Shown here piece after piece: positions 14,748-57,425 of a DNA stretch of 64,000 nt. The notes beneath the pieces were generated by a model, which worked only from the letters and a program-made list of their open reading frames with translations, ran no database searches and was not told the origin of the DNA. Origin of the DNA: a virus. Numbering within the stretch: the first letter of the stretch is position 1; each line of letters begins with the position of its first letter. The stretch spans positions 1 to 64,000 of IMG/VR virus record IMGVR_UViG_3300025864_000001. One strand, written 5' to 3'. A program made the position numbers and the translations under genes.

Positions 14748-15100
14748 TTTGCCTCCTTTGCCTTATCTGCACGTCTCTGATAGTCTAAATTATTAACGCA
14801 TATCAACTGTCCCTCTACCTCAACAAACTTCACCAATCCCTCTCTTTCAAATTTAGCAAATTTTAGCATGGTGATGCGTTTGTCTTTTCTGGATGATAGT
14901 TTCCATGCAGGATACTCTATTGCACGAGTGAGATTTATTCTCTGCTTGTGGTAGGTGATCACAATGTAGTCTTTCGCAACATCGGTAGCCATAGTGCGTA
15001 ATGGTAGTGTTTTTGGTGGCTTTGCTGTGGGTTTCGTCCATATCCAGAGTTTAATCCACTTTAAGAAATTTTTTATTGCCTGTATTATCTGCTTTTTCAT
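14744..15100 (-). CDS. Hypothetical protein
   Basis: ORF overlapping the next gene by ATGA; own TAATTTTG box at 15106-15113. Confidence 0.6.
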   Translation of the reverse strand: MKKQIIQAIKNFLKWIKLWIWTKPTAKPPKTLPLRTMATDVAKDYIVITYHKQRINLTRAIEYPAWKLSSRKDKRITMLKFAKFEREGLVKFVEVEGQLICVNNLDYQRRADKAKEAK

Positions 15101-15110
15101 TGTGTCAAAA

Positions 15111-16305: not shown

Positions 16306-16365
16306 CTACTTTACTTTTCTCTACTCTCCTATACTCTACTTTACTATACTCTACTCTACTCTACT
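16306..16365. repeat. Pentamer tandem repeat (AGTAG-type on minus strand, about 12 units)
   Basis: ctact/ttact/atact/ctcct units. Confidence 0.9.
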
Positions 16366-16827
16366 ATGTGTATTTTCTCCGTCAGAAATGCCATTTATTC
16401 CGTCAGAAATGCCATTTATTCCGTATTTCTTCCGGCAATTGACGGAAAGTAGTTGACATATTTGATTAAAATTCATACATTTTCTATCTCGACGACGGTA
16501 AACGTCCGTCAATCCTTTAACAAAATTTAATGACCAAATGATTCTATTTTCCCATAATTCGGGATGAATTGCATCAAGGGTTGCGCATGTATTATATATG
16601 GCAATTAATTCCTCATCCGTTACCTTCATTAAGGCCGTGAGATATTCCATGTCTTCCGGTTTTCTACAATCGAAATAATGATTATCTGTTCGTCCTAATA
16701 GTTCAAGGGTTTTAAACCAGACTGTATATCCTTTATGACCATATTTGCTTTCCAAAATGAACATGGTTTTACCAGATTCACATTGGTGTGAAAAAAAATT
16801 CACTACGTTTTTGTCTTTTCGTCCCAT
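16351..16827 (-). CDS. DUF4373 (Lin1244/Lin1753-like) replication initiator-type protein
   Basis: FFSH....K...LESKYG..GY..WF..LE.L N-terminal signature, internal iterons and S(K/R)V repeat tail; start MGRKDK at 16827. Confidence 0.75.
   Translation of the reverse strand: MGRKDKNVVNFFSHQCESGKTMFILESKYGHKGYTVWFKTLELLGRTDNHYFDCRKPEDMEYLTALMKVTDEELIAIYNTCATLDAIHPELWENRIIWSLNFVKGLTDVYRRRDRKCMNFNQICQLLSVNCRKKYGINGISDGINGISDGENTHSRVE
16378..16447. repeat. 21-bp direct repeats plus imperfect palindrome (candidate iterons/origin)
   Basis: TCCGTCAGAAATGCCATTTAT x2, then TCCGT, then TTCCGGCAATTGACGGAA. Confidence 0.7.
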
Positions 16828-16830
16828 TAT

Positions 16831-16985
16831 GCCACGCTTTAAGTAAAAAAAGCCCCCGGACAAAAGAAAACCATAATTAGGAAGCGTGACCGACCCATTA
16901 TGGTATCTGATGCCCGGAGGCAATATTTTAATGAAATAACTTTATTGGTTTTCATACGTCACGCTTTAAATACCCTACAAATATA
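16831..16985 (-). ncRNA. P4 CI / P1 C4-like structured antisense leader RNA upstream of the initiator
   Basis: TATATTTG box; AAAGCGTGAC upstream and AAAGCGTGGC downstream of a long hairpin whose loop carries GTCACGCTT; hairpin followed by T7. Confidence 0.65.
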
Positions 16986-17033
16986 TGTTAATTTTTAATA
17001 TAAAAATAAAAGAAGCAGTCTTTTGGTTAATAA

Positions 17034-21835: not shown

Positions 21836-22211
21836 GTCTTTTTTCTTCTAAAAACTATTCTATGTGATACCAGTAGTTATTTCAAATTACTAATCGGTGT
21901 TCTATGTGGTGTAAATTAACAACCTTATTTTGAATCTACCAAATAAAATACCACAATTCTGCACTTTACCCTAAGTGTGCGTGTCCTTGCAGTCTATATA
22001 CATGTTTTCGGTTGGTCGCGTATTTCCAAAATCGAAAACGCGAACCCACCAGCCCCCTTCTGGGACTCCGGCAACTTTACCGGACCATATAAAGCGCGTT
22101 ATTGTCTCCTGATCAGCAAATAAAGCGGTTTGTAATACTATTCAATAGGGTAGGGGAGGGCATTACATTAGCACAATGCCGATGCCTGTCTGATCAATGC
22201 AAATACATTCT

Positions 22212-22239
22212 ATTTGACATAATAATTATTATAGGCTTT
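22212..22239 (-). other. dif-like XerC/XerD recombination site
   Basis: Minus strand AAAGCCTATAA-TAATTA-TTATGTCAAAT: 11-6-11 layout, XerD arm one mismatch from TTATGTTAAAT. Confidence 0.75.
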
Positions 22240-22421
22240 ATATGATAGGGGTCTGCATGCGTGCGTTTAGCTGTGTGCTGTGCGTTCTGATTGCCTCATT
22301 AATTGTGCCTTTGCGTGTGCTTTTATCTGTTTGCATGTTAATTATATGCTTTAATATTATGTAAAATAGCACAGTAAACGGGCTAAAAGTGTGTAATATT
22401 GTGGTTTTAAGTGGCTGACGA

Positions 22422-23039
22422 TTGAATACTCACACAAATAACGGACCAATGGCAGGACAAACGCGACCAAATGAGGCAAACGACCTGAATAACGGTCATT
22501 CTCTTTCTTCTCTTCCTTCCTTACCTGTAAGTCTGAATGGTTTATATCAGGTGTTAAATGATGATATGAAGAGGCTATTTATTAAGATGTACAATTATTT
22601 ATGGGGTGTTGTTAATGGTTATTCGGTGCGGTCCTGTGGCGTTGTGTCATATTATTGGCTATTGTCCCGTGTTGCTGCCTCTTCTTCTCTTGCTCCTTCT
22701 TCTCTGGTCCTGCTGTCATATCTTTATATGATGACAAGTAAAGGAACTAAGTTAATACATTCTAATATTGTACATAATAGTGGGGTGTTGCCTGGTGCGC
22801 TGCCGATTACTGTCCAGCGTGTAACATGGGACCTTAAACATGCCGGATACATTACCAGACATACAAAAGATCCCGGCCAACCTTACAGCCAAAGGGCACA
22901 ACATAACAAACAGCCGGTTTATATTCGCCTTACTCCTTTGGGCTTGCGTGTCATTGAAGATATGACAAAGGACATTAACAAACTATTGCTTAATACTTCG
23001 CTTAATGATCTTACAGGGGTGAACATAAAAAAACCCTGA
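22422..23039 (+). CDS. MarR-like winged-helix protein
   Basis: L.LLSYLY...TVQRVTWDLKHAGYITR...VYIRLTPLG; true start uncertain. Confidence 0.65.
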   Translation: MNTHTNNGPMAGQTRPNEANDLNNGHSLSSLPSLPVSLNGLYQVLNDDMKRLFIKMYNYLWGVVNGYSVRSCGVVSYYWLLSRVAASSSLAPSSLVLLSYLYMMTSKGTKLIHSNIVHNSGVLPGALPITVQRVTWDLKHAGYITRHTKDPGQPYSQRAQHNKQPVYIRLTPLGLRVIEDMTKDINKLLLNTSLNDLTGVNIKKP

Positions 23040-23059
23040 TAGTATTGATTTATCAGGGT
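23027..23059 (-). terminator. Intrinsic terminator between convergent genes
   Basis: ACCCTGATA/TATCAGGGT stem with T-tract on the minus strand. Confidence 0.75.
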
Positions 23060-23080
23060 GTTAACTCGTTTAGGCTGCGT

Positions 23081-23587
23081 TTATTCGCTTGTTAACGTGC
23101 CATCATCAGTAAAATAATACTCATTCGCTTCAATGGTATCAATTATTGCCTCCTCGCTGGTCCTGTACTCGTACTCCTTTGTTAATATTATCCTGTAATC
23201 CTCACAAAGAGACTTTAAAAATTCATCTTCTAACTCTTCTATCTCTTCCTCTACTGATTGTTCTATCCTTCCATTTTCTCCGGTCAATGCTTCAAGGTCA
23301 TTTAAAAACTCTTTTGCTGTGTCAAATGTATCACATTCATTGCCGTGACTTACTTTTATTAGTTCGGCTGTGTCTGCTGCTGATACGATAAAATTACCTT
23401 TTACATAACTTGCTCTATCAATGTCAAAGCCTGTTATCTTAAAGTTGATATTTTCTGCATCCTCATATGTTGATTCAAACCAGTTAGAAAATTCCACATT
23501 AATAGCTGATAGTTTATTTATTGCGTTCTTTTTTGCCTCTTCTGATAGTTCGCTGAACTGATACAGGTTAATAGTTTTTGTTTTCAT
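23081..23587 (-). CDS. Conserved phage hypothetical protein
   Basis: Y.F.ELSEEAK...EYEY..SEEAI..TI.ANEY.F..DG pattern. Confidence 0.75.
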   Translation of the reverse strand: MKTKTINLYQFSELSEEAKKNAINKLSAINVEFSNWFESTYEDAENINFKITGFDIDRASYVKGNFIVSAADTAELIKVSHGNECDTFDTAKEFLNDLEALTGENGRIEQSVEEEIEELEDEFLKSLCEDYRIILTKEYEYRTSEEAIIDTIEANEYYFTDDGTLTSE

Positions 23588-23611
23588 CTTATTTTGTGTT
23601 TTTGGTGCCGG

Positions 23612-23884
23612 TTAATATTGTTCTGTAACATCATATACAAGCTGTTCCCATCTATCTAAACCGTTCGGGCGTCCTCCTTCTTTTAATTTGGGGCACAGTT
23701 TAATAAACTTAATAGCATATTGTAAGGCCTTTAATAGGTCCGGGGCTGCTGCAAGTAGTCGCGCGTTGGCTTCCTGTTCTTCGTTATCCTTATCAAAATA
23801 AGGAATAAGGGCAAGCGTTTTCCCTGTCTCTTGTGGGTAAATTTGTCCGTCCTTAGTTATCCATGTTCCTTCTGTGTGTTTCAT
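23612..23884 (-). CDS. KHTxGxW...ANAxLxAAAPDLL family protein, copy 1
   Basis: Family motifs. Confidence 0.8.
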   Translation of the reverse strand: MKHTEGTWITKDGQIYPQETGKTLALIPYFDKDNEEQEANARLLAAAPDLLKALQYAIKFIKLCPKLKEGGRPNGLDRWEQLVYDVTEQY

Positions 23885-23926
23885 CGTCTTGTGTGTTTAA
23901 TGGTTAATACTCTGGTTTACTGTTTA

Positions 23927-24109
23927 TTATAGTCCGCAATCTGCATCAGACTGCATTTCATACTCTAATTCGTAGAGTTCACTGGCTCTGTCTGCGCAAT
24001 CCTCGCAGATATTGACATCAAGAGGGCTAATTTCCCCGTTCTCTATCATATCAACCTCTGTTTTAGATAGTTGAAATTTCTCTTTACATATAATACAGGT
24101 GCGTTTCAT
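23927..24109 (-). CDS. Small Zn-finger protein
   Basis: CxxC...CxxC. Confidence 0.65.
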   Translation of the reverse strand: MKRTCIICKEKFQLSKTEVDMIENGEISPLDVNICEDCADRASELYELEYEMQSDADCGL

Positions 24110-24120
24110 AGTGTTGTGTT

Positions 24121-24213
24121 TTAAAGGTTTTCAACTATTGTTTCTATTTCTTCATCCGTAGACCCTTGGGCCCTGAGGTCCTTTACAAATTCAATTAATT
24201 CACTGGTTTTCAT
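24121..24213 (-). CDS. 30-aa small protein MKTSELIEFVKDLRAQGSTDEEIETIVENL
   Basis: Manual translation; shares the AAACACA leader; first gene after the leftward promoter. Confidence 0.5.
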   Translation of the reverse strand: MKTSELIEFVKDLRAQGSTDEEIETIVENL

Positions 24214-24246
24214 TGGTTTGTGTTTTTAATTAATACTAATCAGATG

Positions 24247-24360
24247 TAAATGTAATACATATATATCATATAAACAAATCTTTTTACATATTTATTTTGC
24301 ATTATTATATTATTATTATTGCTTTTTACTTGTTTATATGATATTTATAGTTTTACTTTG
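24247..24360. promoter_or_regulatory. Back-to-back divergent promoters sharing a 15-bp inverted repeat
   Basis: ATATCATATAAACAA (24263-24277) / TTGTTTATATGATAT (24330-24344); each arm reads TTG + 20 nt + TACATTTA or TTACTTTG. Confidence 0.65.
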
Positions 24361-24387
24361 TACTGTTAACCAATAAAAACACACACA

Positions 24388-24768
24388 ATGAAAATTAAAA
24401 GCAGTAACGCAAGTAGTTTTTTAAATCATCTCAAAACATTGGCCTATCTTGGTAATGTTGATGAGTGGAAAGCAGAGAACCTTTACAAGAAATTAAAAAG
24501 GATCGAATCAAGAATGAACCGTTTAATGTGCGATGAGTGCAACGGGACCAGACCAGGCACCGAAGAAGAGAACGAAAAGAAAGACGAAAAAGTAATTGAT
24601 CGAGTTAAAAAGCTCCTTCCGGTTGCTACTGGCGTATTCCTTAACGGGGACCCTCGCGGCTATACTCTTAAAATCAAGAGCGAAGATGTTAAAACTTTGA
24701 ACGAGGCCGGCAAAATCAATATTTATCAGGATTGGGGCGGCTATGGTATTTTGGCCCCTGAATTTTAA
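24388..24768 (+). CDS. Conserved phage hypothetical protein
   Basis: ECNG, NGDPRGY.LKI, DWGGYGILAP motifs. Confidence 0.75.
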   Translation: MKIKSSNASSFLNHLKTLAYLGNVDEWKAENLYKKLKRIESRMNRLMCDECNGTRPGTEEENEKKDEKVIDRVKKLLPVATGVFLNGDPRGYTLKIKSEDVKTLNEAGKINIYQDWGGYGILAPEF

Positions 24769-24841
24769 AGGTTTGCTGATGATTGTTAAATACATGAAAG
24801 CGGGCTAATTACCCGCTACAAACCAATAAAAACACAAAGAA

Positions 24842-25105
24842 ATGACAAACACACTAATTAACACAGATTACCGGACCTATTTAGTAAGGTTCAAATTTCA
24901 ATCAACATACTGCCGTTTTATCGTGCAGGGTTCCGGGCTTATGGACTGCTTAAAACAGTATGATCAGAACGGGGTGGAATCCATTAAAGAATTTGACCCG
25001 CTCAAAAGTACATTTAAACGCATTTCCCGGGCTGATCTCCTGAAGGCGTTCAAATGGGAAACAGAAACGTATGAGTATTTAAAAAATCATTACTTTTTCA
25101 AATAG
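24842..25105 (+). CDS. Hypothetical protein
   Basis: AACCAATAAAAACAC leader. Confidence 0.65.
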   Translation: MTNTLINTDYRTYLVRFKFQSTYCRFIVQGSGLMDCLKQYDQNGVESIKEFDPLKSTFKRISRADLLKAFKWETETYEYLKNHYFFK

Positions 25106-25167
25106 TTTTTATTGGTTGCTTGGTTAATACTTTGCGCCTGGGGTGTGTTCCTGGGCGCAATTAACCA
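25106..25167 (+). ncRNA. Candidate antisense hairpin complementary to early-gene leaders
   Basis: TTTTTATTGGTT followed by a hairpin with loop GTGTGTT. Confidence 0.4.
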
Positions 25168-25191
25168 CGCTTAACCGTAAATATTAATATT

Positions 25192-25392
25192 ATGGCACGA
25201 AAAAAATGTACTTTGGAATCTATCGCGCTGACTACTTTAAAGCCTGGTGCGTTCCTTTACTCTCATAAGGCCGATAAAGATTTAACGGCTATATCTCATT
25301 ATTATCGGGTGCGGATAGCTACTGAGCGTTTAATATTGATCAATCCGCAGACCTGTAAAGCTCAAAAAATTACAAAAGTTACTTTACTCTAA
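25192..25392 (+). CDS. Hypothetical protein
   Basis: ORF track, operon direction. Confidence 0.55.
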   Translation: MARKKCTLESIALTTLKPGAFLYSHKADKDLTAISHYYRVRIATERLILINPQTCKAQKITKVTLL

Positions 25393-25403
25393 TACCTTAT
25401 ATT

Positions 25404-25493
25404 ATGGAATATCTTTATTTATTAATTCCTGGTGTTCTGATCCTGATGATCTTCTTACCCTCTATTAAACCCTTTAATACTGTGAAAAAATGA
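25404..25493 (+). CDS. 29-aa single-TM peptide
   Basis: MEYLYLLIPGVLILMIFLPSIKPFNTVKK; ATGA overlap with a 59-aa ORF (25490-25669). Confidence 0.45.
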   Translation: MEYLYLLIPGVLILMIFLPSIKPFNTVKK

Positions 25494-25852
25494 CAATAGA
25501 ACGCACCGCAACCAATTTAATGACCGGACAAATAAGAACGGTTATTTTTACACGTGTTGAGGATCATAATTTTAATATTGCCAATCTCTGGCGGTCCTCT
25601 GATGGTGGTTATTATACCTTTGGGATCCTCGGATGGTTTAACGTTGATAAATACCTGAAACATGATTAAGCGCGTTTTAAGGCATCAATTTGCCCCGTTC
25701 CTACTTATCCCCCTGTCTTGTATCTATTGGGGTGTGTTCTGGGCCCTGGGGGTCCTGCTGGGCTTAATGTAGCCGGGAGAATGCAGGGCCAAAGGTTTTA
25801 ATATTACAATCAAATAGTATCACAATTTTTTAATTTATAAAAACACAGAAAA

Positions 25853-26065
25853 ATGAAAGAAATTAAATTTAACAGAAATACGTCATTTTTAGGGCGTAAC
25901 GGCATGTTTAAACAATCCGGTATCCGAATAAATGAGATTACTGGCGCAATAGCTTTGTACCCGATCACCAGTAAAGGACAAATCGGACGAGCATGTTTAA
26001 CTATTCCAAAAGATAAGTTACAGGAATTTATGAATGCACTATTATTAACCCCTCTCACAGATTAA
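25853..26065 (+). CDS. Hypothetical protein
   Basis: PITSKG..GR motif; AAACACA leader. Confidence 0.65.
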   Translation: MKEIKFNRNTSFLGRNGMFKQSGIRINEITGAIALYPITSKGQIGRACLTIPKDKLQEFMNALLLTPLTD

Positions 26066-26145
26066 GTTTTTGCCCGTTACAAGTCGGGAATAATACAGAG
26101 TACAGGGGCGCAAGCCTCTGAAATGTAACCAAAAACATAGAAATT

Positions 26146-26496
26146 ATGAAAGATCAAAAACACACAGCAGGAAATTGGACACGTGGAACTCGTACCAATA
26201 CAAAAGAATGGATGCAAATAGTTAGTGATGGTATTATACCAATTGCAGAAGTAAAACCATTACATAAAACCGGATACAGAGAAAAGGATGACTTTCAAAC
26301 AGAAGAAGCAAACGCAAAATTAATTTGCGCAGCCCCAGACTTACTAAAAGTTTGCATTGACTTACTTAACGCATTTGTCCACAAAGAGAATGACAAGAAA
26401 GGCAACCAGACAAGAACGGACATTTTTAAATACTGTCCTGAATTTGGGGAAATAGCAGTAGCAGCAAGACACGCAATCGAAAAAGCAACGGAATAA
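26146..26496 (+). CDS. KHTxGxW...AAPDLL...KATE family protein, copy 2
   Basis: Family motifs. Confidence 0.8.
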   Translation: MKDQKHTAGNWTRGTRTNTKEWMQIVSDGIIPIAEVKPLHKTGYREKDDFQTEEANAKLICAAPDLLKVCIDLLNAFVHKENDKKGNQTRTDIFKYCPEFGEIAVAARHAIEKATE

Positions 26497-26621
26497 TGAA
26501 AACAATTTGTACACATTGCGGGAAAAAACAAACCGCAAAAGAAAAAGAGTATTCTTTAAATAGCGCAAAATGTAAGTTTTGTAAAAAAGAAGGTACGTTA
26601 ATAGAAATAACAAAGCAATGA
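26496..26621 (+). CDS. 41-aa Zn-ribbon protein
   Basis: MKTICTHCGK...KCKFCK; TAATG and ATGA overlaps at its two ends. Confidence 0.55.
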   Translation: MKTICTHCGKKQTAKEKEYSLNSAKCKFCKKEGTLIEITKQ

Positions 26622-26860
26622 ATAAACCAACCTACACACCGGAACAGATGAACGGCAAATATATTGCCTGTTCTGTATTACTCGATCCTCCCGGCTTGGG
26701 TGCAGTCGAATATGCCACAGGACCACGCGAGGGATTGCCCGTACTCTACAATTCCATAGCATCAGCAGAAGATGATTTGTTTTGGGATGACTTATGGGAT
26801 CACATTATACCCGCAAGTGAATATTTTGAGCGGGTGGCAACAAATAATTTTAAGTTTTAA
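26618..26860 (+). CDS. Hypothetical protein
   Basis: ORF track. Confidence 0.6.
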   Translation: MNKPTYTPEQMNGKYIACSVLLDPPGLGAVEYATGPREGLPVLYNSIASAEDDLFWDDLWDHIIPASEYFERVATNNFKF

Positions 26861-26881
26861 AATATATAAAAAAGCATAATT

Positions 26882-27160
26882 ATGAAACACACACAAGGAG
26901 AATGGATTATGCACAATAACGTGTTTAATTCTGTTGTAATCACAAAAATAGACAGTGGTTATAAAGTTATCGGATCATTCACAAATGATAATAAATTGAT
27001 CCCAGAAAACGAAATGAGGGCAAATGCAAAACTCTGCGCAGCAGCCCCTGACTTACTGGAGTCCTGTATCAAATTATTTGAAATTGTTGATACAAGATCC
27101 CAATCCGATGAAGATATTTGCTTCATGGCATATAAAACCATTAAAAAAGCCACCGAATAA
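26882..27160 (+). CDS. KHTxGxW...AAAPDLL...KATE family protein, copy 3
   Basis: Family motifs. Confidence 0.8.
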   Translation: MKHTQGEWIMHNNVFNSVVITKIDSGYKVIGSFTNDNKLIPENEMRANAKLCAAAPDLLESCIKLFEIVDTRSQSDEDICFMAYKTIKKATE

Positions 27161-27450
27161 TGCCACAATTTAACCTCTTTGGAGAGATAGACGTACAGAC
27201 CATGCCGGAGCCGGAAATGGTTTCCGAAATGCCTGAGCCTGAGATGCCGCACCCTCGCAAGTCAAAGAAGAGAAAGTCTTTTGATATTGGCATTTGTCGT
27301 GCGTGTGGTCAGTTACTACTCGATGATCCTGATAACACCAGGATTAAGATTGATGATGAGTTATGTGAGGATTGCGATGCTACATTAAGGGCAAAATACA
27401 GTCAGTATAAAAATTTTGCTCTTATACGAGCATTGAGAATGCGTAAATAA
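27160..27450 (+). CDS. Zn-finger protein with N-terminal QxNLF motif
   Basis: QFNLF (clamp-binding-like), MPEPEM x2, CxxC..CxxC. Confidence 0.55.
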   Translation: MPQFNLFGEIDVQTMPEPEMVSEMPEPEMPHPRKSKKRKSFDIGICRACGQLLLDDPDNTRIKIDDELCEDCDATLRAKYSQYKNFALIRALRMRK

Positions 27451-27465
27451 CTTAAAAATAATAAC

Positions 27466-27704
27466 ATGAAAACTATTGAAGTTTCAGCCAAATCAATGAC
27501 TGAATTTATTAAAAGCACAAAACTTCATTTTGATAATATTGATAAAATTATGAAGTTGCCGGAATCTAATGAAAGAGGCAGGATGATAGCCAAAGAAATG
27601 AAATGAATCGGATTAATTTCGATTATGATGCTTTTCTTCATTTTGCGCTTAATATCCCAATGGACAAACTCCAATCGGTGAGAAATAAAAGTTTCAAATT
27701 ATAA
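27466..27704 (+). pseudogene. 77-aa gene broken by a 5-bp duplication
   Basis: AAATG AAATG at 27596-27605; removing one copy fuses MKTIEV...AKEM with NRINFDY...FKL. Confidence 0.55.
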
Positions 27705-27714
27705 AAACAATATT

Positions 27715-27945
27715 ATGAAAACAAATCCAAATAATCCAATTAATGCAATAGTAGGAGACAGTACAAAATTTGCCGGACTTACCAAGCGTGAATACTTTGC
27801 AGCAATGGCAATGCAGGGACTTCTTGCAGGACATTACGAATACTTTACAGGTAATGCAGATGTTTCTGTACCAATGGAAATTGCTAAATATGCAGTTTAT
27901 AATGCAGATGCTTTAATTGAAGAACTTAATAAATCAGAATTATGA
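27715..27945 (+). CDS. Conserved phage hypothetical protein
   Basis: GLTKREYFAAMAMQGLL...ADALI family motif. Confidence 0.8.
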   Translation: MKTNPNNPINAIVGDSTKFAGLTKREYFAAMAMQGLLAGHYEYFTGNADVSVPMEIAKYAVYNADALIEELNKSEL

Positions 27946-28442
27946 AAAAACTATTTTTTTTACTTTTGATCAGCGTGTCATTCTCAGCAATGGCACAGCG
28001 TTATCCCTTTGCCCTCTATGTATCACACCAGCCGGTTGACTTTGGTATTGGTGTGCGTGGTGACTATTATATACATGGCTTAGGCTTGTATAGCTCTGTG
28101 TCTTATGGCAATTGGGGACTTTACAGACAGTATGATATAAAACACCATGTAAAGCTATCAACGGGTGTGTTATTGCCTCTGCCAGATTATAATGGTGCTT
28201 CATTTGATGTTACTGCCGGCATTAATTATCATCTTTTAGGATCTGTTATGCTCGATAACTCCCCTCTTGACCCTAAAATCTTTAACCCTTGGAGTTTTGA
28301 GTTAGGGATTACAGCTAAATTAAAGCGTTTTTCATTAGGTTTGCGCACTGACATTTTGCGTTGGGAACCATGCGTGGACGTAGGTTTTAAACTATTTAAA
28401 GGACAATATTATGACAAAGCAAAAAGTAAATCCTGTAAGTAA
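27942..28442 (+). CDS. Putative outer-membrane beta-barrel protein
   Basis: Signal peptide MKKLFFLLLISVSFSAMAQ, alternating aromatic/Gly strands, VDVGFKLF. Confidence 0.55.
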   Translation: MKKLFFLLLISVSFSAMAQRYPFALYVSHQPVDFGIGVRGDYYIHGLGLYSSVSYGNWGLYRQYDIKHHVKLSTGVLLPLPDYNGASFDVTAGINYHLLGSVMLDNSPLDPKIFNPWSFELGITAKLKRFSLGLRTDILRWEPCVDVGFKLFKGQYYDKAKSKSCK

Positions 28443-28635
28443 TCGTAAAATGTGGTGCTATTATGCGCCCGATGGGTGGCCACAAGTAAGAACATTAGCT
28501 GAGTCTCGAGTTGAATGTAGGCTGATGCTTAATAAATATGACTATCCTGCTACATGGCAGAAAGCTGAAAGTCAAGGTGCTTTTATACACAAAGTTGTTG
28601 TAACAATAATTGAACCTTTAAAATTAAGCCAATGA
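28411..28635 (+). CDS. Hypothetical protein
   Basis: ORF track. Confidence 0.5.
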   Translation: MTKQKVNPVSNRKMWCYYAPDGWPQVRTLAESRVECRLMLNKYDYPATWQKAESQGAFIHKVVVTIIEPLKLSQ

Positions 28636-28985
28636 GAAAAAAGCAAATTTTCGTTCAAACGCAGGGTGTAGATAAGAACAGGGTCTCCCCCTTTAAGCCT
28701 ATGGGCTTTGTTGCGCTTAATTTTGACAATATCAAAATGACTATTGATGCGTATGATTATTCAGGTGTGCTTGCTGAACCACGTGAGGACTCTCTTGTTG
28801 AGATCATGGACGAAAAAGAAGTATTTCAATTCACCCCTGCACAATTACTGCAAGCAATAAGATTTTTTCAACGCTATGCCGAAATGGGGAAGGATGTGGT
28901 GCGCTTTAAGAACATCTTCCATGTCATTATGCCAGACAGGTATAAGAATGCCTTACAAGTCACGAAACGAGGTCTTAAATTTTGA
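28632..28985 (+). CDS. Hypothetical protein
   Basis: ATGA overlap. Confidence 0.6.
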   Translation: MRKKQIFVQTQGVDKNRVSPFKPMGFVALNFDNIKMTIDAYDYSGVLAEPREDSLVEIMDEKEVFQFTPAQLLQAIRFFQRYAEMGKDVVRFKNIFHVIMPDRYKNALQVTKRGLKF

Positions 28986-29013
28986 GTTTTAAAAATAGTT
29001 TATCTTTGTACCG

Positions 29014-29439
29014 ATGCAGACACAAGACACCATATCAAAAAAGAAGTTGGACCGGATAAAAATAATTTATAACGGGGACGTGGAGATAATAGATTTCCTT
29101 TCCGATCTGAAAAGCAGGGATGTGATAGCCGGACTACAAGACCTCATCCATGATAATAAAGGACTGCCCTGTGCCCTCCTCTTTAATTGTGGATGTGATG
29201 ATATTGTGGTAATGATACTCTATAAATCACCTTTTGCGTTCAATGATCCGGGTAATACTCTCATGCTTTATGCCGGAAATGAACTACATGAACTGATGGT
29301 GTACTTTAGACATCTTTTGGATAACACTTCAAAAGAGAAAAGCGTTATTAACCAAGCATTAACTGATATTGTGCAACTACTGTACCAGGAATGGAACAGA
29401 TTGCAAGACGATAATGTTCAGTCTGATTTTTTAGGCTGA
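29014..29439 (+). CDS. Hypothetical protein, probably leaderless
   Basis: TATCTTTG at 29001-29008, 5 nt before ATG. Confidence 0.6.
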   Translation: MQTQDTISKKKLDRIKIIYNGDVEIIDFLSDLKSRDVIAGLQDLIHDNKGLPCALLFNCGCDDIVVMILYKSPFAFNDPGNTLMLYAGNELHELMVYFRHLLDNTSKEKSVINQALTDIVQLLYQEWNRLQDDNVQSDFLG

Positions 29440-29442
29440 CAT

Positions 29443-29486
29443 AGAACGGGTGCCGGTTTGTGTGTTCCGGTGCCCTTTCTTTTTTT
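29443..29486 (+). terminator. Intrinsic terminator with TTTGTGTGTT loop
   Basis: AGAACGGGTGCCGG/CCGGTGCCCTTTCT stem plus T-tract. Confidence 0.75.
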
Positions 29487-29513
29487 CTAAACACTATAAT
29501 CAAATTAATTGTA

Positions 29514-30077
29514 ATGAAGATGATCACAGGAACTTTAATAACATGGTTTTGTTTTCTCACTTGCTCGGCACCTCCTCCTTCGGTGGCGCAGCAAAAAGAA
29601 AACATTGAATGGGTTAAAATAGAGATTAATCGCATAGACTGTGAAGAGCAGCTTGCACTCTTTATTGAACACTTGGGTATCCGTGAATCGGGTAATCGGT
29701 GGCAGATAATCAATGCAATCGGATGTATGGGTAAATTTCAATTTGCTCACAATACTCTTGAGTGTCTTGGTTACGGCTACATCACACCTCAGCAGTTCGC
29801 TCATAACCCTGAAATCTTCCCCGAAGCACTACAACGTCAGGTGTTGCTTGCCCTCTTTAAATCAAATGAAATAGCACTTAGAGACTATTTCTATTATTGC
29901 GGGCAGGAAATAGCAGGTGTGACAATAACCAGATCGGGAATGCTTGCTGCGGCTCATCTTGGAGGTGCCTATTCCGTAAAACTCTTTCTGCTTAGCATGG
30001 GGCATGTCAATAGACAAGACCTGAACCAGACATCAATAAAACACTACCTGAGCGAATTTGCCGGGTATAATATTTAA
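29514..30077 (+). CDS. Lysozyme-fold / lytic transglycosylase-like protein with N-terminal signal
   Basis: RESG....N..G.MGKFQF, LAAAHLGG. Confidence 0.75.
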   Translation: MKMITGTLITWFCFLTCSAPPPSVAQQKENIEWVKIEINRIDCEEQLALFIEHLGIRESGNRWQIINAIGCMGKFQFAHNTLECLGYGYITPQQFAHNPEIFPEALQRQVLLALFKSNEIALRDYFYYCGQEIAGVTITRSGMLAAAHLGGAYSVKLFLLSMGHVNRQDLNQTSIKHYLSEFAGYNI

Positions 30078-30087
30078 AAACACGACT

Positions 30088-30405
30088 ATGACAAAAGACA
30101 AGATTATTGAAAAACAGAAAGAACTGATTATCGTATTAACAACGGCCTTGGATTTCTTGGCAGATAACAATCTGATTAAAGAAAAAAAAAATAATAACGA
30201 TATTGATAATGAGCCTTTAATTGATTGCGTGAACAAGGCAGCCAAATTAAGAACTGAGGTTAAAGAACTTGAATCAGAACTTTTTAAAGAAAAAACTCAA
30301 TGCCCTTATAAAGGTGAAGAAGGTAATACATATGATCTATGTCCTTCATGGATCGCTTTTACAAATGGGTGTGCTGATTGTGTTAAATATCATAAAAATC
30401 AATAG
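30088..30405 (+). CDS. Hypothetical protein
   Basis: ORF track. Confidence 0.5.
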   Translation: MTKDKIIEKQKELIIVLTTALDFLADNNLIKEKKNNNDIDNEPLIDCVNKAAKLRTEVKELESELFKEKTQCPYKGEEGNTYDLCPSWIAFTNGCADCVKYHKNQ

Positions 30406-30407
30406 CT

Positions 30408-30551
30408 ATGAAAAAAGACAAAACACCTATTGAATTTGAAGATCCTGATCCCTTTGACGGGATGAAAGCTCTTGGATGTCTGCTTATCGGCTCGGTACTG
30501 ATCGCAGTAGCACTATTTCTGTTTGGAGTACTCATTAAAGTAATACAATGA
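30408..30551 (+). CDS. 47-aa single-TM protein
   Basis: MKKDKTPIEFEDPDPFDGMKALGCLLIGSVLIAVALFLFGVLIKVIQ (manual translation). Confidence 0.55.
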   Translation: MKKDKTPIEFEDPDPFDGMKALGCLLIGSVLIAVALFLFGVLIKVIQ

Positions 30552-30553
30552 CT

Positions 30554-30718
30554 ATGAAACTATTCTTAGCTATTTTAATGGGTGTCATCGCCATTATGTT
30601 CCTGTTCTTTGCCGGATTCGCAGAGGTGGTGGCAGTTGCCTTTGTTTACGTACTGCTCGCAATGTTGAGCATGCTCTTATCATTCTATTTTTACTTTGGT
30701 AATATCGAGTTTAAATGA
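30554..30718 (+). CDS. 54-aa two-TM protein
   Basis: MKLFLAILMGVIAIMFLFFAGFAEVVAVAFVYVLLAMLSMLLSFYFYFGNIEFK (manual translation). Confidence 0.55.
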   Translation: MKLFLAILMGVIAIMFLFFAGFAEVVAVAFVYVLLAMLSMLLSFYFYFGNIEFK

Positions 30719-30978
30719 GCAGACATTACGAGCCACGCCAAAAGAAAGTCATCCCTCCTGTAAGGCGTATGAAGATTATACGGATTGATGCCAGAACGGA
30801 AATTGAGGTACTTGCAAGCATCCCTGATGATGTGGCCAGAGAACGGTTCATCGCAAAACGAAATATGGGGCCACGTGCTCCGTTTGCCTCTCTATATCCT
30901 GCTGATGAAAAGCCGGAAGTGCCACAAGAAGAACTTGCATCAGTTGTAGATGATGAGGATTTACCTGAAACAGAATAA
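30715..30978 (+). CDS. Hypothetical protein
   Basis: IRIDARTEI motif; ATGA overlap. Confidence 0.65.
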   Translation: MSRHYEPRQKKVIPPVRRMKIIRIDARTEIEVLASIPDDVARERFIAKRNMGPRAPFASLYPADEKPEVPQEELASVVDDEDLPETE

Positions 30979-31204
30979 CTATGGACAAAAGACTATTTGC
31001 ATTTTTAAAAGATCGCAAGATATTCACAGGTGGTCATAAAACTTTGCGTGAATACATGGACAATAAAGAGCAAAACACTGAATGGAATGATCGTGCCCGG
31101 AAAGGGCACAAGAAAGCCAAGATGAAATAAATTTGGTTATTAAATCTACACTTCGTACTTTTGAAGTGTTATAACGGCAATATTGCCACAAAACAACAAA
31201 AACA

Positions 31205-31648
31205 ATGCGCATGAAAAAAATGCTTATCCTCGCACTGATCGCACTCTTTTACATAGTGTCCAGTGCGTTGACACCGCCTCAAACGGTGCCCGTTGACCAA
31301 GATGTTGGCTATTCGTTAATTGCGAATCAGAACACATCAGTAATAACAATTCTTCCAGTTCAAAGCCCGGTTATTGCCGGTGAAGTAAGTTACACAATTA
31401 CCAGGGGGTCCAGTGTGATTGACAAGGGTCTGATTAATTCAGATGCCATAGTGTATAATCATCAGGAAAGTTTCACATGTAATACTTACTACACAATTGA
31501 CAGGCTTGATTCAAAACTGCCGATATTAGCAGGATTTGAAAATCAAATAAAGAACCCTCCGGGTAGAAACAGTATGAGCACAGACTTGGGAGGACTGCTA
31601 ATTGAATATGATGTTCCCCGGGACGGGGCAAAGTCCAGACATATCTAA
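31205..31648 (+). CDS. Secreted hypothetical protein
   Basis: Signal peptide; TACTTTTG box at 31156-31163. Confidence 0.6.
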   Translation: MRMKKMLILALIALFYIVSSALTPPQTVPVDQDVGYSLIANQNTSVITILPVQSPVIAGEVSYTITRGSSVIDKGLINSDAIVYNHQESFTCNTYYTIDRLDSKLPILAGFENQIKNPPGRNSMSTDLGGLLIEYDVPRDGAKSRHI

Positions 31649-31672
31649 GAAAAGCCAATTGGCATAAATAAT

Positions 31673-31704
31673 AAAGCACCTCGTAAATGGGGTGCTTCTT
31701 TTTT
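31673..31704 (+). terminator. Terminator at the convergence of the two blocks
   Basis: AAGCACC/GGTGCTT stem plus T-tract. Confidence 0.7.
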
Positions 31705-31721
31705 ATGATGATTAGTATTAA

Positions 31722-32921
31722 TTACCTTATTTCTTCTATATTTCCGACTTGAGCCGTGAATGTTCCTGAGCTACAAATCACTGTTAGATTTATATACCAA
31801 ATTCCTGATATAGTAATTGCAGGAGTAGTGGGTGCTGCCACATAAGTTGGTAATTGAACTGCTCCGGCATAGCCAACTCCCTCTGCTTTAATTGTGGTTG
31901 CTGACCGGATAGTTATTAATACATCAAATCCCGCCCTCGCATTTGCCGCCTGTGCTGCTGACGTTACCGCCGTCCAATCAATTGTATCAGAGATTGTCCC
32001 TAAATTCCCGCATCTTACTTTAAATATCAATGTACCTGTTGACGATGAATTACCAATGATCCATGCTCGGAAAGTTGATCCTACACTTGCACGTGCTGCT
32101 GGTATTTGTAATTGAAGTAATACCTTTTCAGTTGTGCCGGAAGTAACCACCGGAGCCAATAAATTTGCAAATAGCCTTACAGGGGCGTCAGTCCCATTTT
32201 GTCCGGGAACTCCTTGATCCCCTTTATCTCCTTTTAATCCATCAAAATAGTCAATATTTTTAACAGGGGTATTACCGGGAATACCTTGTATGCCCTGATC
32301 TCCTTTAAGTCCTTGCGAACCATCATTGCCGGGCAAACCTTGATCTCCCTTGTCTCCTTTTGAACCCGGAGTCCCAGGAGCACCGTCTTCTCCATTGAAA
32401 TAATCAACATTAAGCACAGGAGTACGCCCATCTTCTCCGTCCGCGCCTGCCTGCCCTGTTGCACCATCATTACCAGGGATGCCCTGCATGCCTCGTGAAC
32501 CCGACTGTCCTGCCTCCCCATTTGTACCATTTTCACCTTTAAGGGATAATAACCATTCCGATTCTATCCCCGTAAAACCATTCTCAACTGCTACCTGATA
32601 TGCTGACTTACCATCAGTAGACGGAATTTGATCTGCAATAGTGGCAATCTGTTCCGGGGTCAACTCAACTGCAGGCGGTGGTATTTGCGCAGCAATCTCC
32701 ATTATCACAGCAGGCACCACGGATAATGCTATTTCTGCTATATGCCCAAGTAGATTAATAACACCCCAGCTACCACGAGGAATCTGAGCCGATGCTGTGC
32801 CAATAACAACATCTCCGAGATTAGCAAAATCAAATGAGTCTTTCTTTGTGGCATGTAGCTTAACCGGATCACCAATTTTGATCGCACGTCCAGAAGCGTT
32901 TAGAAGTCTTTTCTGTGCCAC
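31722..32921 (-). CDS. Collagen-like (G-X-Y) fibre protein
   Basis: G-X-Y runs, DGKSAYQVAVENGF, TPV.N.DYF repeats; TACCTTTG box at 32941-32948. Confidence 0.85.
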   Translation of the reverse strand: MAQKRLLNASGRAIKIGDPVKLHATKKDSFDFANLGDVVIGTASAQIPRGSWGVINLLGHIAEIALSVVPAVIMEIAAQIPPPAVELTPEQIATIADQIPSTDGKSAYQVAVENGFTGIESEWLLSLKGENGTNGEAGQSGSRGMQGIPGNDGATGQAGADGEDGRTPVLNVDYFNGEDGAPGTPGSKGDKGDQGLPGNDGSQGLKGDQGIQGIPGNTPVKNIDYFDGLKGDKGDQGVPGQNGTDAPVRLFANLLAPVVTSGTTEKVLLQLQIPAARASVGSTFRAWIIGNSSSTGTLIFKVRCGNLGTISDTIDWTAVTSAAQAANARAGFDVLITIRSATTIKAEGVGYAGAVQLPTYVAAPTTPAITISGIWYINLTVICSSGTFTAQVGNIEEIR

Positions 32922-35318: not shown

Positions 35319-35828
35319 TTACGCGAGTAAATTTAACTTTTTAAATGCGATGTATTCTGCTTTCATCGCTATTACAAGGGCATCCCACTCCGTAAACTTC
35401 CAATTTGGATGATTAGTCTTTTCAAGTGTGGTGCCTTGGTCAACTATCCTGTGAAACTCCGGCAATACCACTCTGATATTCTCTGGGTTTAGTTTGAAGT
35501 AGAGATAATTCTTTTTATTCAGCACGTGCGCAAAACAGTTTACGAACATATCCGTATTATAGAAGCGGTTTAAGCGTTCTCCGGTGTACGGACACGTCAC
35601 AATACCCTTTACGTCTTTTGCTTCATCCCAGAGCCAGTTAAATAGGTCTATTTGCGATTCAAAAGGGAAGTCATAGTCTCTTACACGTGTTTTTTGTGCA
35701 AATGCAGGAGTTTTCTTAGGCTTTTTGTCGGTGCGAAGATACTGATGCCGTTTACAGTAGCCATATCCGGTCTTCTTGTCAGTCCCCCAAACAGACTGAG
35801 TGCAATTATCAAATTCGCAGTATCTCAT
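35319..35828 (-). CDS. NinG/HNH-like nuclease
   Basis: Zn finger C..C..C..H; CP..G, AHVL.K..Y....NPENI, H...D. Confidence 0.6.
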   Translation of the reverse strand: MRYCEFDNCTQSVWGTDKKTGYGYCKRHQYLRTDKKPKKTPAFAQKTRVRDYDFPFESQIDLFNWLWDEAKDVKGIVTCPYTGERLNRFYNTDMFVNCFAHVLNKKNYLYFKLNPENIRVVLPEFHRIVDQGTTLEKTNHPNWKFTEWDALVIAMKAEYIAFKKLNLLA

Positions 35829-36187
35829 TCTGTGGCTTTTTTAATTTCATAAGCAAGGTGAAAAGGACAATTAGTCCCATGATTTTCTTCGCCCCAATCA
35901 TCTTTGTTGCAGAAAGGACATCCTTTATTTTCGTCTCTTTCAAGAAGTTTTTCTACTAATAGCCTCATATCCGGTGCAGCGGCAATTAGTTTCATGTTCG
36001 CCTCTATTTCCGCTTTCTGTTTAATATACTCTTTATCAGAATCAGGTAACATTGAATTGCAGATAAATTCAGTATAAGTTCCACCTATTGGCAATTTAGT
36101 GTTCACCCCAACACCGAGGCATATTTTTTTAGGTTTCCTCTCGTAATATTTAAAAATAAGTTCCCATTTTCCTGCTGTGTGTTTCAT
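35825..36187 (-). CDS. KHTxGxW...AAAPD...KATE family protein, copy 4 (with CxxC..H...C insert)
   Basis: Family motifs. Confidence 0.8.
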   Translation of the reverse strand: MKHTAGKWELIFKYYERKPKKICLGVGVNTKLPIGGTYTEFICNSMLPDSDKEYIKQKAEIEANMKLIAAAPDMRLLVEKLLERDENKGCPFCNKDDWGEENHGTNCPFHLAYEIKKATE

Positions 36188-57423: not shown

Positions 57424-57425
57424 GA

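Follow-up and report, generated by a model that had tools for sequence, protein, structure and literature searches.

A GU-rich terminator loop is complementary to the CA-rich leaders of early genes in an uncultured phage

In an uncultured phage with a genome of 78 kb, the loop of an intrinsic terminator carries UGUGUU, the exact complement of AACACA, the most enriched hexamer of the early-gene leaders. The best reading of this match, judged from the sequence and given a probability of roughly 0.4, is a GcvB-like pairing of the GU-rich terminator loop with CA-rich translation tags. The analysis was performed on a window of 64,000 nucleotides, the whole stretch of the record that was read, to which all coordinates refer, and on related phage genomes. 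Judged by its leaders, its promoter style and one binned MAG contig, the phage looks like one with a Bacteroidota-type host.

The early region and its divergent control region

The block that carries these leaders is labelled, from its position and gene content, as a divergently transcribed early region in a host that does not use Shine-Dalgarno sequences; no annotated family was found among the proteins of this block. As read from the sequence, the divergent control region (24214..24387) holds an inverted repeat, TTGTTTATATGATAT (24264-24278 on the minus strand and 24330-24344 on the plus strand), and two -7-like boxes, the rightward TTACTTTG (24353-24360, plus strand) and the leftward TACATTTA (24254-24247, minus strand). 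Promoters of Bacteroidota have the consensus TTTG / TAnnTTTG, and by comparison with it the boxes of the control region are probably host-type promoters. The -33/-7-like boxes are kept in the present genome (G000) and in the relatives G002 and G003 (alignment A2), and the segment 24260-24361 is 96% identical to G002, with about 70% identity over the remainder of the block. The proteins encoded beside the control region vary between related phages, while the CA tag stays.

CA-rich leaders specific to the early block

In the interval 23.6-25.9 kb, seven genuine ATG starts are preceded, at a distance of 4-7 nt, by the motif AAACACA. The first-pass annotation had named these starts (23587, 23884, 24109 and 24213 on the minus strand; 24388, 24842 and 25853 on the plus strand), and all of them, like the sequences that it quoted, were found in place. 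The minus-strand leaders are AAACACA at 23595..23601 (7 nt before the ATG of gene 23081-23587), AAACACACAAG at 23892..23898 (7 nt before the ATG of gene 23612-23884), and those at 24115..24121 (gene 23927-24109) and 24219..24225 (gene 24121-24213), the last belonging to the first leftward gene, whose homologous leader carries AACAC(A/G)C in G001-G006. On the plus strand, the leader AACCAATAAAAACACACACA of the first rightward gene (24368..24387; start 24388) is within the 5' UTR, since the -7-like box lies upstream of it, and AACCAATAAAAACAC is present both at 24368 and at 24821. A hairpin between cistrons (24770..24841, plus strand; GGTTTG...AGCGGG-loop-CCCGCT...CAAACC; fold z = -3.16) precedes the single-stranded leader AATAAAAACACAAAGAA of gene 24842; its counterpart in G006 reads GGTTTA/TAAACC, a compensatory change. 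The last leader, at 25841..25847 (plus strand), precedes gene 25853-26065.

In the window, the pattern AAACACA-N3-8-ATG has eight matches, compared to 2.02 ± 1.41 in shuffled sequences, none of 100 of which reached eight, and seven of the eight fall in 23585-25855. Across the 78-kb genome, AAACAC occurs at -25..-1 of 7/10 genes lying no more than 1.7 kb from the divergent centre and of 5/114 genes elsewhere (p = 1e-6), which bears out the earlier proposal that the motif is specific to this block rather than equally frequent before other genes. With six genomes pooled, the motif was found in 18/62 leaders beside the control region against 15/594 (p about 1e-11). The bare word AAACACA is only mildly enriched (24 copies, 15.5 expected), and four of its copies are coding (23881 and 36184 on the minus strand; 26158 and 26885 on the plus strand), where ATG AAA CAC ACA specifies M-K-H-T in small paralogous proteins. 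The number of CA leaders ranges from about 2 to 7 per genome, and leader variants such as ACACGC and ACAUAC are transitions that retain G-U pairing with an all-G/U loop.

The leaders combine a general and an early-specific part. Every gene class has T at -15 and A at -14 to -10 (A 47-81%; 636 genes in six genomes), as do genes lying <15 nt from an upstream gene for the A positions (A 56-68%). The start regions of the phage family are thus enriched in A at -14 to -11 and are without a Shine-Dalgarno sequence. The start-site signature described for Bacteroidetes combines an A-run at -14 to -11 with A at -3 and -6 (Baez 2019, PMC6847099); the A at -14 to -10 of the phage family, including the A-run of AAACACA, matches it, whereas the CACA extension and AACC, confined to the early block, lie outside the described host signature (PMC6847099). 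AACACA is the top 6-mer of early leaders (14/43 vs 4/273, p = 2e-10), and only CACA and the upstream AACC are early-specific. The idea that AAACACA as a whole is a common initiation motif independent of Shine-Dalgarno pairing was therefore narrowed: its CACA is particular to early genes, and its A-run is shared by all. These data support the CA leader as an early-block-specific element conserved across related phages.

A terminator loop complementary to the leaders

The intrinsic terminator (29448..29486, plus strand) closes the rightward early operon. It consists of the stem GGGTGCCGG/CCGGTGCCC (29448-29456 / 29467-29475), the loop UUUGUGUGUU (29457-29466; TTTGTGTGTT in the DNA) and a U tract (29476-29486). 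With a 9-bp stem of 7 G-C pairs, a U tract in which 9 of 11 nt are U, and a predicted fold of -19.6 kcal/mol (z = -4.0), it has the GC-rich stem and U tract by which a Rho-independent terminator is recognized, and it would work on the plus strand only, because the stem includes two G-U pairs.

Related terminators were collected as 14 matches to covariance model R1 plus those of G006, G010 and G011. The first-pass annotation had placed this terminator at 29443 and had noted the leader complement in its loop, a claim now strengthened by the relatives: UGUGUU is present in 16/16 related terminator loops (10-17 nt), and TGTGTT is the only invariant 6-mer. These 16 terminators have at least 11 different stems. 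In the stem alignment, 88% of cells are paired and 20 cells show double changes, compared to 7.4 in shuffles (0/500 shuffles match); the double changes fall at 6/8 stem pairs, and the covariation score is 0.62 vs 0.26 in shuffles (0/500 reach the observed value). The results support selection on the sequence of the loop, with the stem kept by compensatory changes. Since the loop core is invariant in all copies, covariation between loop and target cannot be scored.

Upstream of the terminator, a leaderless 141-aa gene (29001..29439, plus strand) whose own TATCTTTG box lies 5 nt upstream of the ATG is kept in 13 relatives; the predicted fold of its protein had no match in the PDB. The loop is retained in G004 despite a different upstream gene and the absence of the 141-aa protein. 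Just past the U tract, an AAACAC box (29489..29494, plus strand) precedes the ATG of gene 29514-30077 by 20 nt and is kept in 11/16 relatives. Downstream of the terminator, the genes run on in the same strand, which makes control of read-through into gene 29514 plausible.

Other RNA elements of the early operon

The stop codon of gene 24842 marks the beginning of Element A, a long imperfect hairpin (25103..25190, plus strand; fold -29 to -35 kcal/mol, z = -4.66). In this hairpin, the 5' base TAGTTTTTATTGGTT is complementary to AACCAATAAAAAC, the middle stem is TTGGTTAAT/ATTAACCA, and the apical stem spans 25132-25160. The element is conserved in G000, G006, G003, G002, G001 and L229, with variable apical hairpins. 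The anti-leader TTTTTATTGGTT lies at 25106, immediately 3' of the TAG stop of gene 24842, and its best-ranked partners genome-wide are the first early leaders in both G000 and G003. The earlier suggestion of an anti-leader at 25.1 kb was sustained insofar as TTTTTATTGGTT was found again in five lineages. It lost ground on two points: TTTTTATTGGTT also has a partner in cis at the base of the long hairpin, and the apical GTGTGTT loop is not conserved among the relatives, where it reads tgtgt, ttgtg, ctcttctc, att or ttatcttatca. In the minimum-energy fold of 25132-25160 only UGUGU forms the open loop, the rest of GTGTGTT being engaged in weak closing pairs.

The first-pass annotation had also listed a recurrence of GGGGTGTGTTC at 25729. 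This candidate was rejected as a regulatory hairpin: the sequence encodes the W-G-V-F of a conserved 36-aa hydrophobic membrane ORF (...YWGVFWALG...; 25662..25772, plus strand), and the region folds no better than shuffles (z = +0.48). Elsewhere in the same genome (16815-17000), a second hairpin carries an apical GUCACGCUU that mirrors two leaders on its flanks.

Between two early cistrons, a type-P3 twister self-cleaving ribozyme was identified at 26066..26136 on the plus strand (Rfam RF03154; 59.6 bits vs a gathering score of 39.9, E = 2.6e-11, model positions 1-73 of 73). Alignment to the model predicts cleavage near 26121/26122. The ribozyme was absent from the relatives scanned. Rfam scans of 22000-32500 (E<=1) and of the whole window (gathering score) list only this ribozyme and one noise match.

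Predicted pairing and alternative explanations

The predicted loop-leader duplexes range from -8 to -15 kcal/mol overall and from -8 to -11.3 kcal/mol in G000 (UUUGUGUGUU vs AAACACA(CA)), where the leader AAACACACAAG of gene 23612-23884 is the best partner at -11.3 kcal/mol; the 10-nt loop limits pairing to about 6-7 unstrained pairs. Early leaders were the top-ranked predicted loop targets in G000, G003, G004 and G005, with Mann-Whitney p = 0.0008-0.0024 in three of these genomes. In G001 and G002, with the loop intact, early leaders were not enriched among predicted loop targets (p about 0.4).

Leader and loop may be unrelated, an account that we regard as possible, if rather unlikely. The CA extension could be a mere unstructured ribosome landing pad (an ACA-type enhancer), and the GU loop could be kept for a host or phage RNA-binding protein setting termination, read-through into 29514 and beyond, or 3'-end stability. 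Known enhancer logic fits the A-run plus CA composition, the variable number of CA leaders accompanies an invariant loop, and the same-strand genes past the terminator make read-through control plausible. Moreover, the two motifs are simple repeats of low complexity, CA in one and UG in the other, and shuffled GU loops pair almost equally well (fraction at or below the observed mean, 0.02-0.115). However, the invariant 6-mer of the loop is the reverse complement of the top early-leader 6-mer, which is expected about once in 4096 by chance, and no candidate binding protein was found, the 141-aa neighbor being missing in G004, which keeps the loop.

It is improbable that a protein reads the CA tag, be it a phage translational repressor, a sequence-specific endoribonuclease or an ACA-cutting host toxin. 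The precedent is phage T4, in which RegA, a translational repressor, acts by binding the start regions of early genes and RegB cleaves the GGAG of early Shine-Dalgarno sites, so that a common start-region motif of early genes allows joint switch-off by one factor. The private tag on early start regions, sense-oriented and at a fixed distance from the ATG, resembles these regulons. Such a reader, a protein like the T4 factors, would leave the mirrored terminator loop unexplained; a RegA-like domain was not detected, but neither did the control genomes give a match, and the proteins of the block are without annotated family.

We consider it very doubtful that AACACA/TGTGTT is a double-stranded DNA site, either an operator or a -7-like promoter element giving leaderless early mRNAs. 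Its 4-7 nt spacing to the ATG equals that of TAnnTTTG in the leaderless 141-aa gene, 12 of the 24 AAACACA copies cluster within 3.3 kb, and the motif recurs behind the terminator U tract before the next gene in 11/16 relatives. Yet the motif is always in the sense orientation relative to genes, and for the first gene of either side conserved -33/-7-like boxes stand 10-25 nt upstream of it; together, these two observations point to use of the motif at the RNA level. Furthermore, the A-run is found just as much on closely spaced genes, for which no promoter would be expected, and a duplex-DNA site would have no need of complements in 16/16 loops of an RNA hairpin that covaries and has strand-specific G-U pairs.

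A low-complexity coincidence, in which easily arising CA/TG repeats mirror each other without function, fits the simple composition, the slight excess of the bare word and its four coding copies, but is hardly credible given position-specific enrichment at p = 1e-6 to 1e-11 in six genomes and a loop core invariant in 16 copies while stems turn over.

Comparison with known systems

Pairing of small RNAs with start regions is known from Bacteroides (PMC11697453). In Salmonella and E. coli, a GU-rich segment of GcvB silences ACA/CA-rich translation enhancers (Yang 2014; Sharma 2007 as cited; PMC3879156). The phage arrangement resembles GcvB in that CA-rich elements within, or immediately upstream of, many mRNA start regions find their complement in a GU-rich single-stranded RNA; in the GcvB system, these elements themselves enhance translation (PMC3879156). 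In contrast, GcvB is a free-standing Hfq-dependent chromosomal small RNA with its seed in a linker between hairpins, whereas the phage GU segment is the terminator loop of a protein-coding operon in a lineage without Shine-Dalgarno use. Neither GcvB (RF00022) nor the C4 family (RF01695) was matched in the Rfam scans.

The c4 RNA of P1/P7 and the CI RNA of P4 (Rfam C4) are phage RNAs with hairpin loops complementary to the phage's own ribosome-binding or leader sequences; they are often cut from the transcript that carries their targets and control antirepressor or replication genes. The present loop is likewise phage-encoded and complementary to the phage's own leaders, whereas its proposed targets are a whole set of early cistrons and it sits in an operon-end terminator. 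In Staphylococcus aureus, RNAIII and the Rsa small RNAs carry C-rich (UCCC) loops, including that of a 3' terminator hairpin, which complement the ribosome-binding motif. Here too, hairpin loops, the terminator included, are complementary to a motif common to several targets; the staphylococcal target, however, is the Shine-Dalgarno GGGA, the phage target is a CA tag without Shine-Dalgarno, and RNAIII is a dedicated regulatory RNA. Saito and Richardson are said to have described, in 1981, the processing of T7 early mRNA by RNase III, with a 3' tail reportedly pairing with the gene 1.2 ribosome-binding site. Long hairpins between the cistrons of a polycistronic early RNA and a 3'-proximal complement of upstream starts (Element A) recall T7, with the difference that one processing element of the phage is a predicted twister ribozyme rather than an RNase III site.

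A model for the early region

For the GcvB-like pairing, we propose that each early cistron needing fresh ribosome loading would have a modular leader of three parts: AACC, which in several cases forms the 3' arm of an intercistronic hairpin; the A-run at -14 to -10, common to all genes of the phage family and matching the Bacteroidetes signature; and the early-specific CACA(CA) at about -10 to -6, a putative unstructured ACA-type translation enhancer. The UGUGUU of the unusually large terminator loop, acting either at the 3' end of the early transcripts or within a stable 3' fragment, would base-pair with the CA leaders, and the 5' tail of Element A (25.1 kb) may serve as a second anti-leader. 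Delayed shut-off would need an extra assumption of differential stability, because the terminator and its proposed targets share the same early transcripts. If the loop and leader RNAs meet, and if pairing represses translation at the appropriate time, it would lower or coordinate the translation of the early set, as GcvB R1 does on CA-rich enhancers. The arrangement of leaders and loop thus suggests that protein synthesis in the early region may be under RNA-on-RNA control.

Genome organization and predicted host

The 78,468-bp single contig whose first 64 kb make up the window is a complete phage genome, because its ends are identical over 127 bp and it encodes a phage gene set: terminase, portal, primase/helicase, RecE- and RecT-like proteins, topoisomerase, methyltransferases, and a 2619-aa ORF. 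No close relative was found among deposited phages, and a near and distant DNA search of the phage collection with positions 23000-30000 gave no match. A terminase search recovered many uncultured relatives, with five complete genomes (G001-G005). The closest relative, G006, is 72.7 kb long and was binned with a Prolixibacteraceae MAG as a single contig; binning is weak evidence for a host, yet a Bacteroidota host is consistent with the Bacteroidota-like style of the leaders and promoters. One 216-kb metagenome contig, C687J13896_1000012, carries a locus of the G002 type in three copies about 72 kb apart (L225, L227, and L228) and is probably a concatemer-like assembly of a phage genome.

The minus strand carries nearly all genes. 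Since 24388-31648 is the only plus-strand block, we assigned 24214-24387 as a divergent control region. PHROGs and Pfam searches with 30 proteins from the block and its flanks returned no informative family, and a search of IMG/VR for loci related to those of the 126-aa and 168-aa early proteins found none. Two tiny hydrophobic ORFs of 29 and 36 aa, 25405-25494 (+) and 25662-25772 (+), fall under the usual gene-calling cut-offs, and their positions are kept in relatives. The early block of one related locus contains a DUF805b RNA motif (L234:4418-4452, +; RF02914, 41.8 bits vs 35.6).

A conserved leader of the early genes

The first-pass annotation had proposed that AAACACA, a few nucleotides before the ATG of early genes at 23.6-25.9 kb, marks a regulon that RNA hairpins carrying its complement could shut off. 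All the words that it quoted were found at their positions, and the leader proved to be block-specific: AAACAC occurs at -25 to -1 in 7 of the 10 genes that lie no more than 1.7 kb from the control region, compared to 5 of 114 genes elsewhere (p = 1e-6). The pattern AAACACA-N3-8-ATG occurs eight times against an expectation of 2.0 ± 1.4, a count reached by no shuffle, and seven of these matches lie within 23585-25855, all at true gene starts. In G001-G006 this leader type (..TTAACC..AAAACACACA..ATG) recurs on the genes at either side of the corresponding divergent region, and most of the proteins encoded there are different. The enrichment persists in the pooled data (18/62 vs 15/594, p = 1e-11), with AACACA as the best discriminating 6-mer of early leaders (14/43 vs 4/273, p = 2e-10). 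An exact scan of IMG/VR for AACCAATAAAAACAC returned at least 117 single matches, which is the chance level.

Shine-Dalgarno sequences are absent from the leaders. A position profile of 636 genes gave T at -15 followed by an A-run over -14 to -10 for all genes, even for those with an upstream gap of less than 15 nt; two elements are specific to the early block, CACA around -10 to -6 and AACC around -20 to -16. An adenine run at -14 to -11 is a characteristic feature of Bacteroidetes start regions (Baez et al., PMC6847099), and the phage A-run is the run that these authors describe.

Four more copies of AAACACA are coding, with ATG AAA CAC ACA specifying M-K-H-T in paralogous small proteins of PHROG 1273 (M-K-H-T-x-G-x-W; 23612-23884(-), 26146-26496(+), 26882-27160(+), and 35825-36187(-)). 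Their start, ATGAAACACACA, likewise fits the complement of the terminator loop described below, at +4.

A terminator loop mirrors the leader

The 141-aa gene (29014-29439, +) is predicted to be leaderless because its TATCTTTG box lies only 5 nt before the ATG. The protein has a confident predicted fold (pLDDT 84), for which Foldseek found no match in the PDB at E<=0.001. The gene is followed by an intrinsic terminator (29448-29486, +) with the loop UUUGUGUGUU, specific to the plus strand. All homologous loci have a GC stem, a 10-17-nt loop, and then a U tract. A covariance model built from 13 copies also detects the element in G004, G010, and G011, and G006 has it too; in G004 the upstream gene is unrelated, and a homologue of the 141-aa gene is absent. 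In the model alignment 88% of the cells are paired and six of the eight pairs have double changes, with a covariation score reached by 0 of 500 shuffles. In the 16 copies compared, which have no fewer than 11 different stems, TGTGTT is the only loop 6-mer that never changes; it is the reverse complement of AACACA. The loops of other terminators in these phages measure 4-7 nt and lack TGTGTT. Conservation of the 29.4-kb loop and its complementarity to the leader support the core of the antisense proposal for this element, and we consider the conserved loop mirroring the leader word, as it emerges from sequence comparison, to be the main positive result of the analysis.

Among the 118 matches listed in an exact IMG/VR scan for GGTTTGTGTGTTCC, a true terminator was found only in the G002 lineage. 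The 5' arm of the terminator, GGTGCCGGTT (29450-29459), is also the exact complement of AACCGGCACC (23604-23613) in the leader of gene 23081-23587. As a pairing this 10-nt match was rejected because it does not run colinear with the pairing of the loop and is missing from G002 and G006, and it is treated as lineage-specific or due to chance.

Position of the leader motif relative to promoters

The first gene on each side of the control region has conserved -33/-7-like boxes located within an inverted repeat, TTGTTTATATGATAT (24264-24278 and 24330-24344). The segment 24260-24361 is 96% identical to G002, compared to about 70% for the remaining block and flanks, and is possibly an operator or promoter core common to both. 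In a scan with promoter and terminator consensus sequences, sigma-70-type matches were no more frequent than in shuffles, which fits a non-proteobacterial host. The CA motif of both first genes lies downstream of the boxes, and therefore inside the 5' UTR; it reads as an RNA-level element and not as a promoter. At downstream cistrons the CA motif is preceded by hairpins without U tracts, among them the hairpin 24770-24821, whose 3' arm is AACC and for which G006 shows a compensatory change (GGTTTA/TAAACC). Several leaderless mRNAs are suggested by TAnnTTTG boxes that precede the start codon by 5-8 nt, found for the 2619-aa ORF (57424-57431, -), gene 14744-15100 (15101-15106, -), and the 141-aa gene (29001-29008, +).

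The 25.1-kb hairpin and a twister ribozyme

A second anti-leader had been proposed in the GTGTGTT loop of a hairpin behind gene 24842. At the stop codon of this gene begins TTTTTATTGGTT, the 5' base of a long imperfect hairpin (Element A, 25103-25190, +; fold z = -4.66), of which the 3' arm is itself leader-like (ATTAACC...TTAACCGTAAAT). The element is kept in the present genome (G000), G001, G002, G003, G006, and the locus L229, with the pattern TAGT(T/G)TTTATTGGT..TTCTGGTTA-(variable GC hairpin)-TAACCAGAA..TTAACCAC. The apical GTGTGTT is not conserved among relatives and so carries little weight; the 5' tail is the better anti-leader candidate. Its best predicted partners genome-wide are, in G000, the leaders of 24388 (-16.2 kcal/mol) and 24842 (-15.6 kcal/mol) and, in G003, the first three leaders of the early block. 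The anti-leader is also predicted to pair in cis, and a test of own-genome versus cross-genome pairing gave no clear diagonal. By its position, Element A could be an RNase III-type processing site, where a cut would give the 24388-24842 RNA a 3' end made of the freed 5' arm. The third proposed anti-leader, GGGGTGTGTTC at 25729, was lost to a coding explanation: it encodes W-G-V-F in the 36-aa hydrophobic ORF, which is also present in G001, G002, and G006, and the region folds no better than shuffles.

A full-length type-P3 twister ribozyme (26066-26136, +; RF03154, 59.6 bits vs a gathering score of 39.9) lies between the early genes 25853-26065 and 26146-26496. The predicted cleavage site is near 26121/26122, and a cut there would produce a leader of 24 nt, AAUGUAACCAAAAACAUAGAAAUU. 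Scans of G001-G006 and of further relatives did not find the ribozyme, so the predicted self-cleavage appears to be part of the early operon in this phage only. An Rfam search of 24214-25860 at E<=10 for a second ribozyme gave nothing beyond noise.

Proposed pairing and its alternatives

We favor, with a probability of about 0.4, a model in which the CA extension would act as an unstructured ACA-type enhancer on top of the host-type A-run, and the GU loop of the terminator would be its antisense partner. Predicted loop-leader duplexes range from -8 to -15 kcal/mol, with early leaders top-ranked in four of six genomes; in G001 and G002 the early leaders were not enriched as predicted loop targets. 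The loop core never varies among the terminator copies, and the leader variants ACACGC and ACAUAC are still wobble-compatible with it. Counted against the mechanism are that shuffled loops pair almost as well as the real loop, the motifs being of low complexity, and that the terminator hairpin is on the same transcripts as its proposed targets. That the enhancer is unrelated to the loop, which would instead be bound by a protein, is conceivable though rather unlikely.

A RegA/RegB-like protein reading the tag is improbable; the search for RegA (PF01818) gave no match in the genome, and the control genomes were equally without a match. We regard as very improbable that the motif is a duplex-DNA site or a -7-like promoter element, since its orientation is strictly sense, promoter boxes are already present upstream of it, and its complement is placed in a strand-specific RNA loop. 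Chance, which would give an unrelated loop word this complementarity at about 1/4096, deserves hardly any credence.

A second locus in which a loop mirrors leaders was found at 16815-17000 (-; fold z = -3.26), with the order TATATTTG box, leader UUAAAGCGUGAC, 38-aa ORF, long terminator hairpin (apical GGUCACGCUU), and U7, followed by UUAAAGCGUGGC 3 nt before the ATG of gene 16351-16827. The apical GUCACGCUU of this hairpin mirrors the flanking leaders AAAGCGUGAC and AAAGCGUGGC, which G002 and G003 also have in conserved form.

A broader version of the pairing model, which we consider doubtful, is a phage family with a protein-free early switch, the CA tag being titrated by the early transcripts' own hairpins. 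The tag would drive Shine-Dalgarno-independent translation of immediate-early genes, anti-tags would be built into the processing and termination hairpins of early transcripts (in the GU loop of the terminator and in the tail of Element A at 25.1 kb), and as stable RNA ends accumulate, early translation would limit itself.

Known systems and significance

The GU-rich R1 region of the enterobacterial small RNA GcvB acts on CA-rich enhancers (PMC3879156), and small RNAs pairing with start regions exist in Bacteroides (PMC11697453). The proposed phage arrangement resembles GcvB in setting a GU-rich RNA against CA-rich enhancers, c4 of P1/P7 and CI of P4 as loop-against-leader antisense RNAs, and RNAIII in that the C-rich loops of the latter parallel the phage GU loop. 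It belongs to none of them, because Rfam finds only the twister-P3 in the block.

To our knowledge, the timing of gene expression in Bacteroidota phages is almost unknown. Bacteroidota hosts ignore Shine-Dalgarno sequences, and the usual targets of translational control are therefore missing. An early-specific leader tag and a mirrored terminator loop, both conserved, make a concrete and easily mutated hypothesis that bears on post-transcriptional control in Bacteroidota, and such a compact leader/anti-leader pair is a possible expression tool for Bacteroides or Flavobacterium. Should the loop and the leaders prove not to pair, the CA tag would still be a candidate for a strong start-region module in hosts that do not use Shine-Dalgarno sequences.
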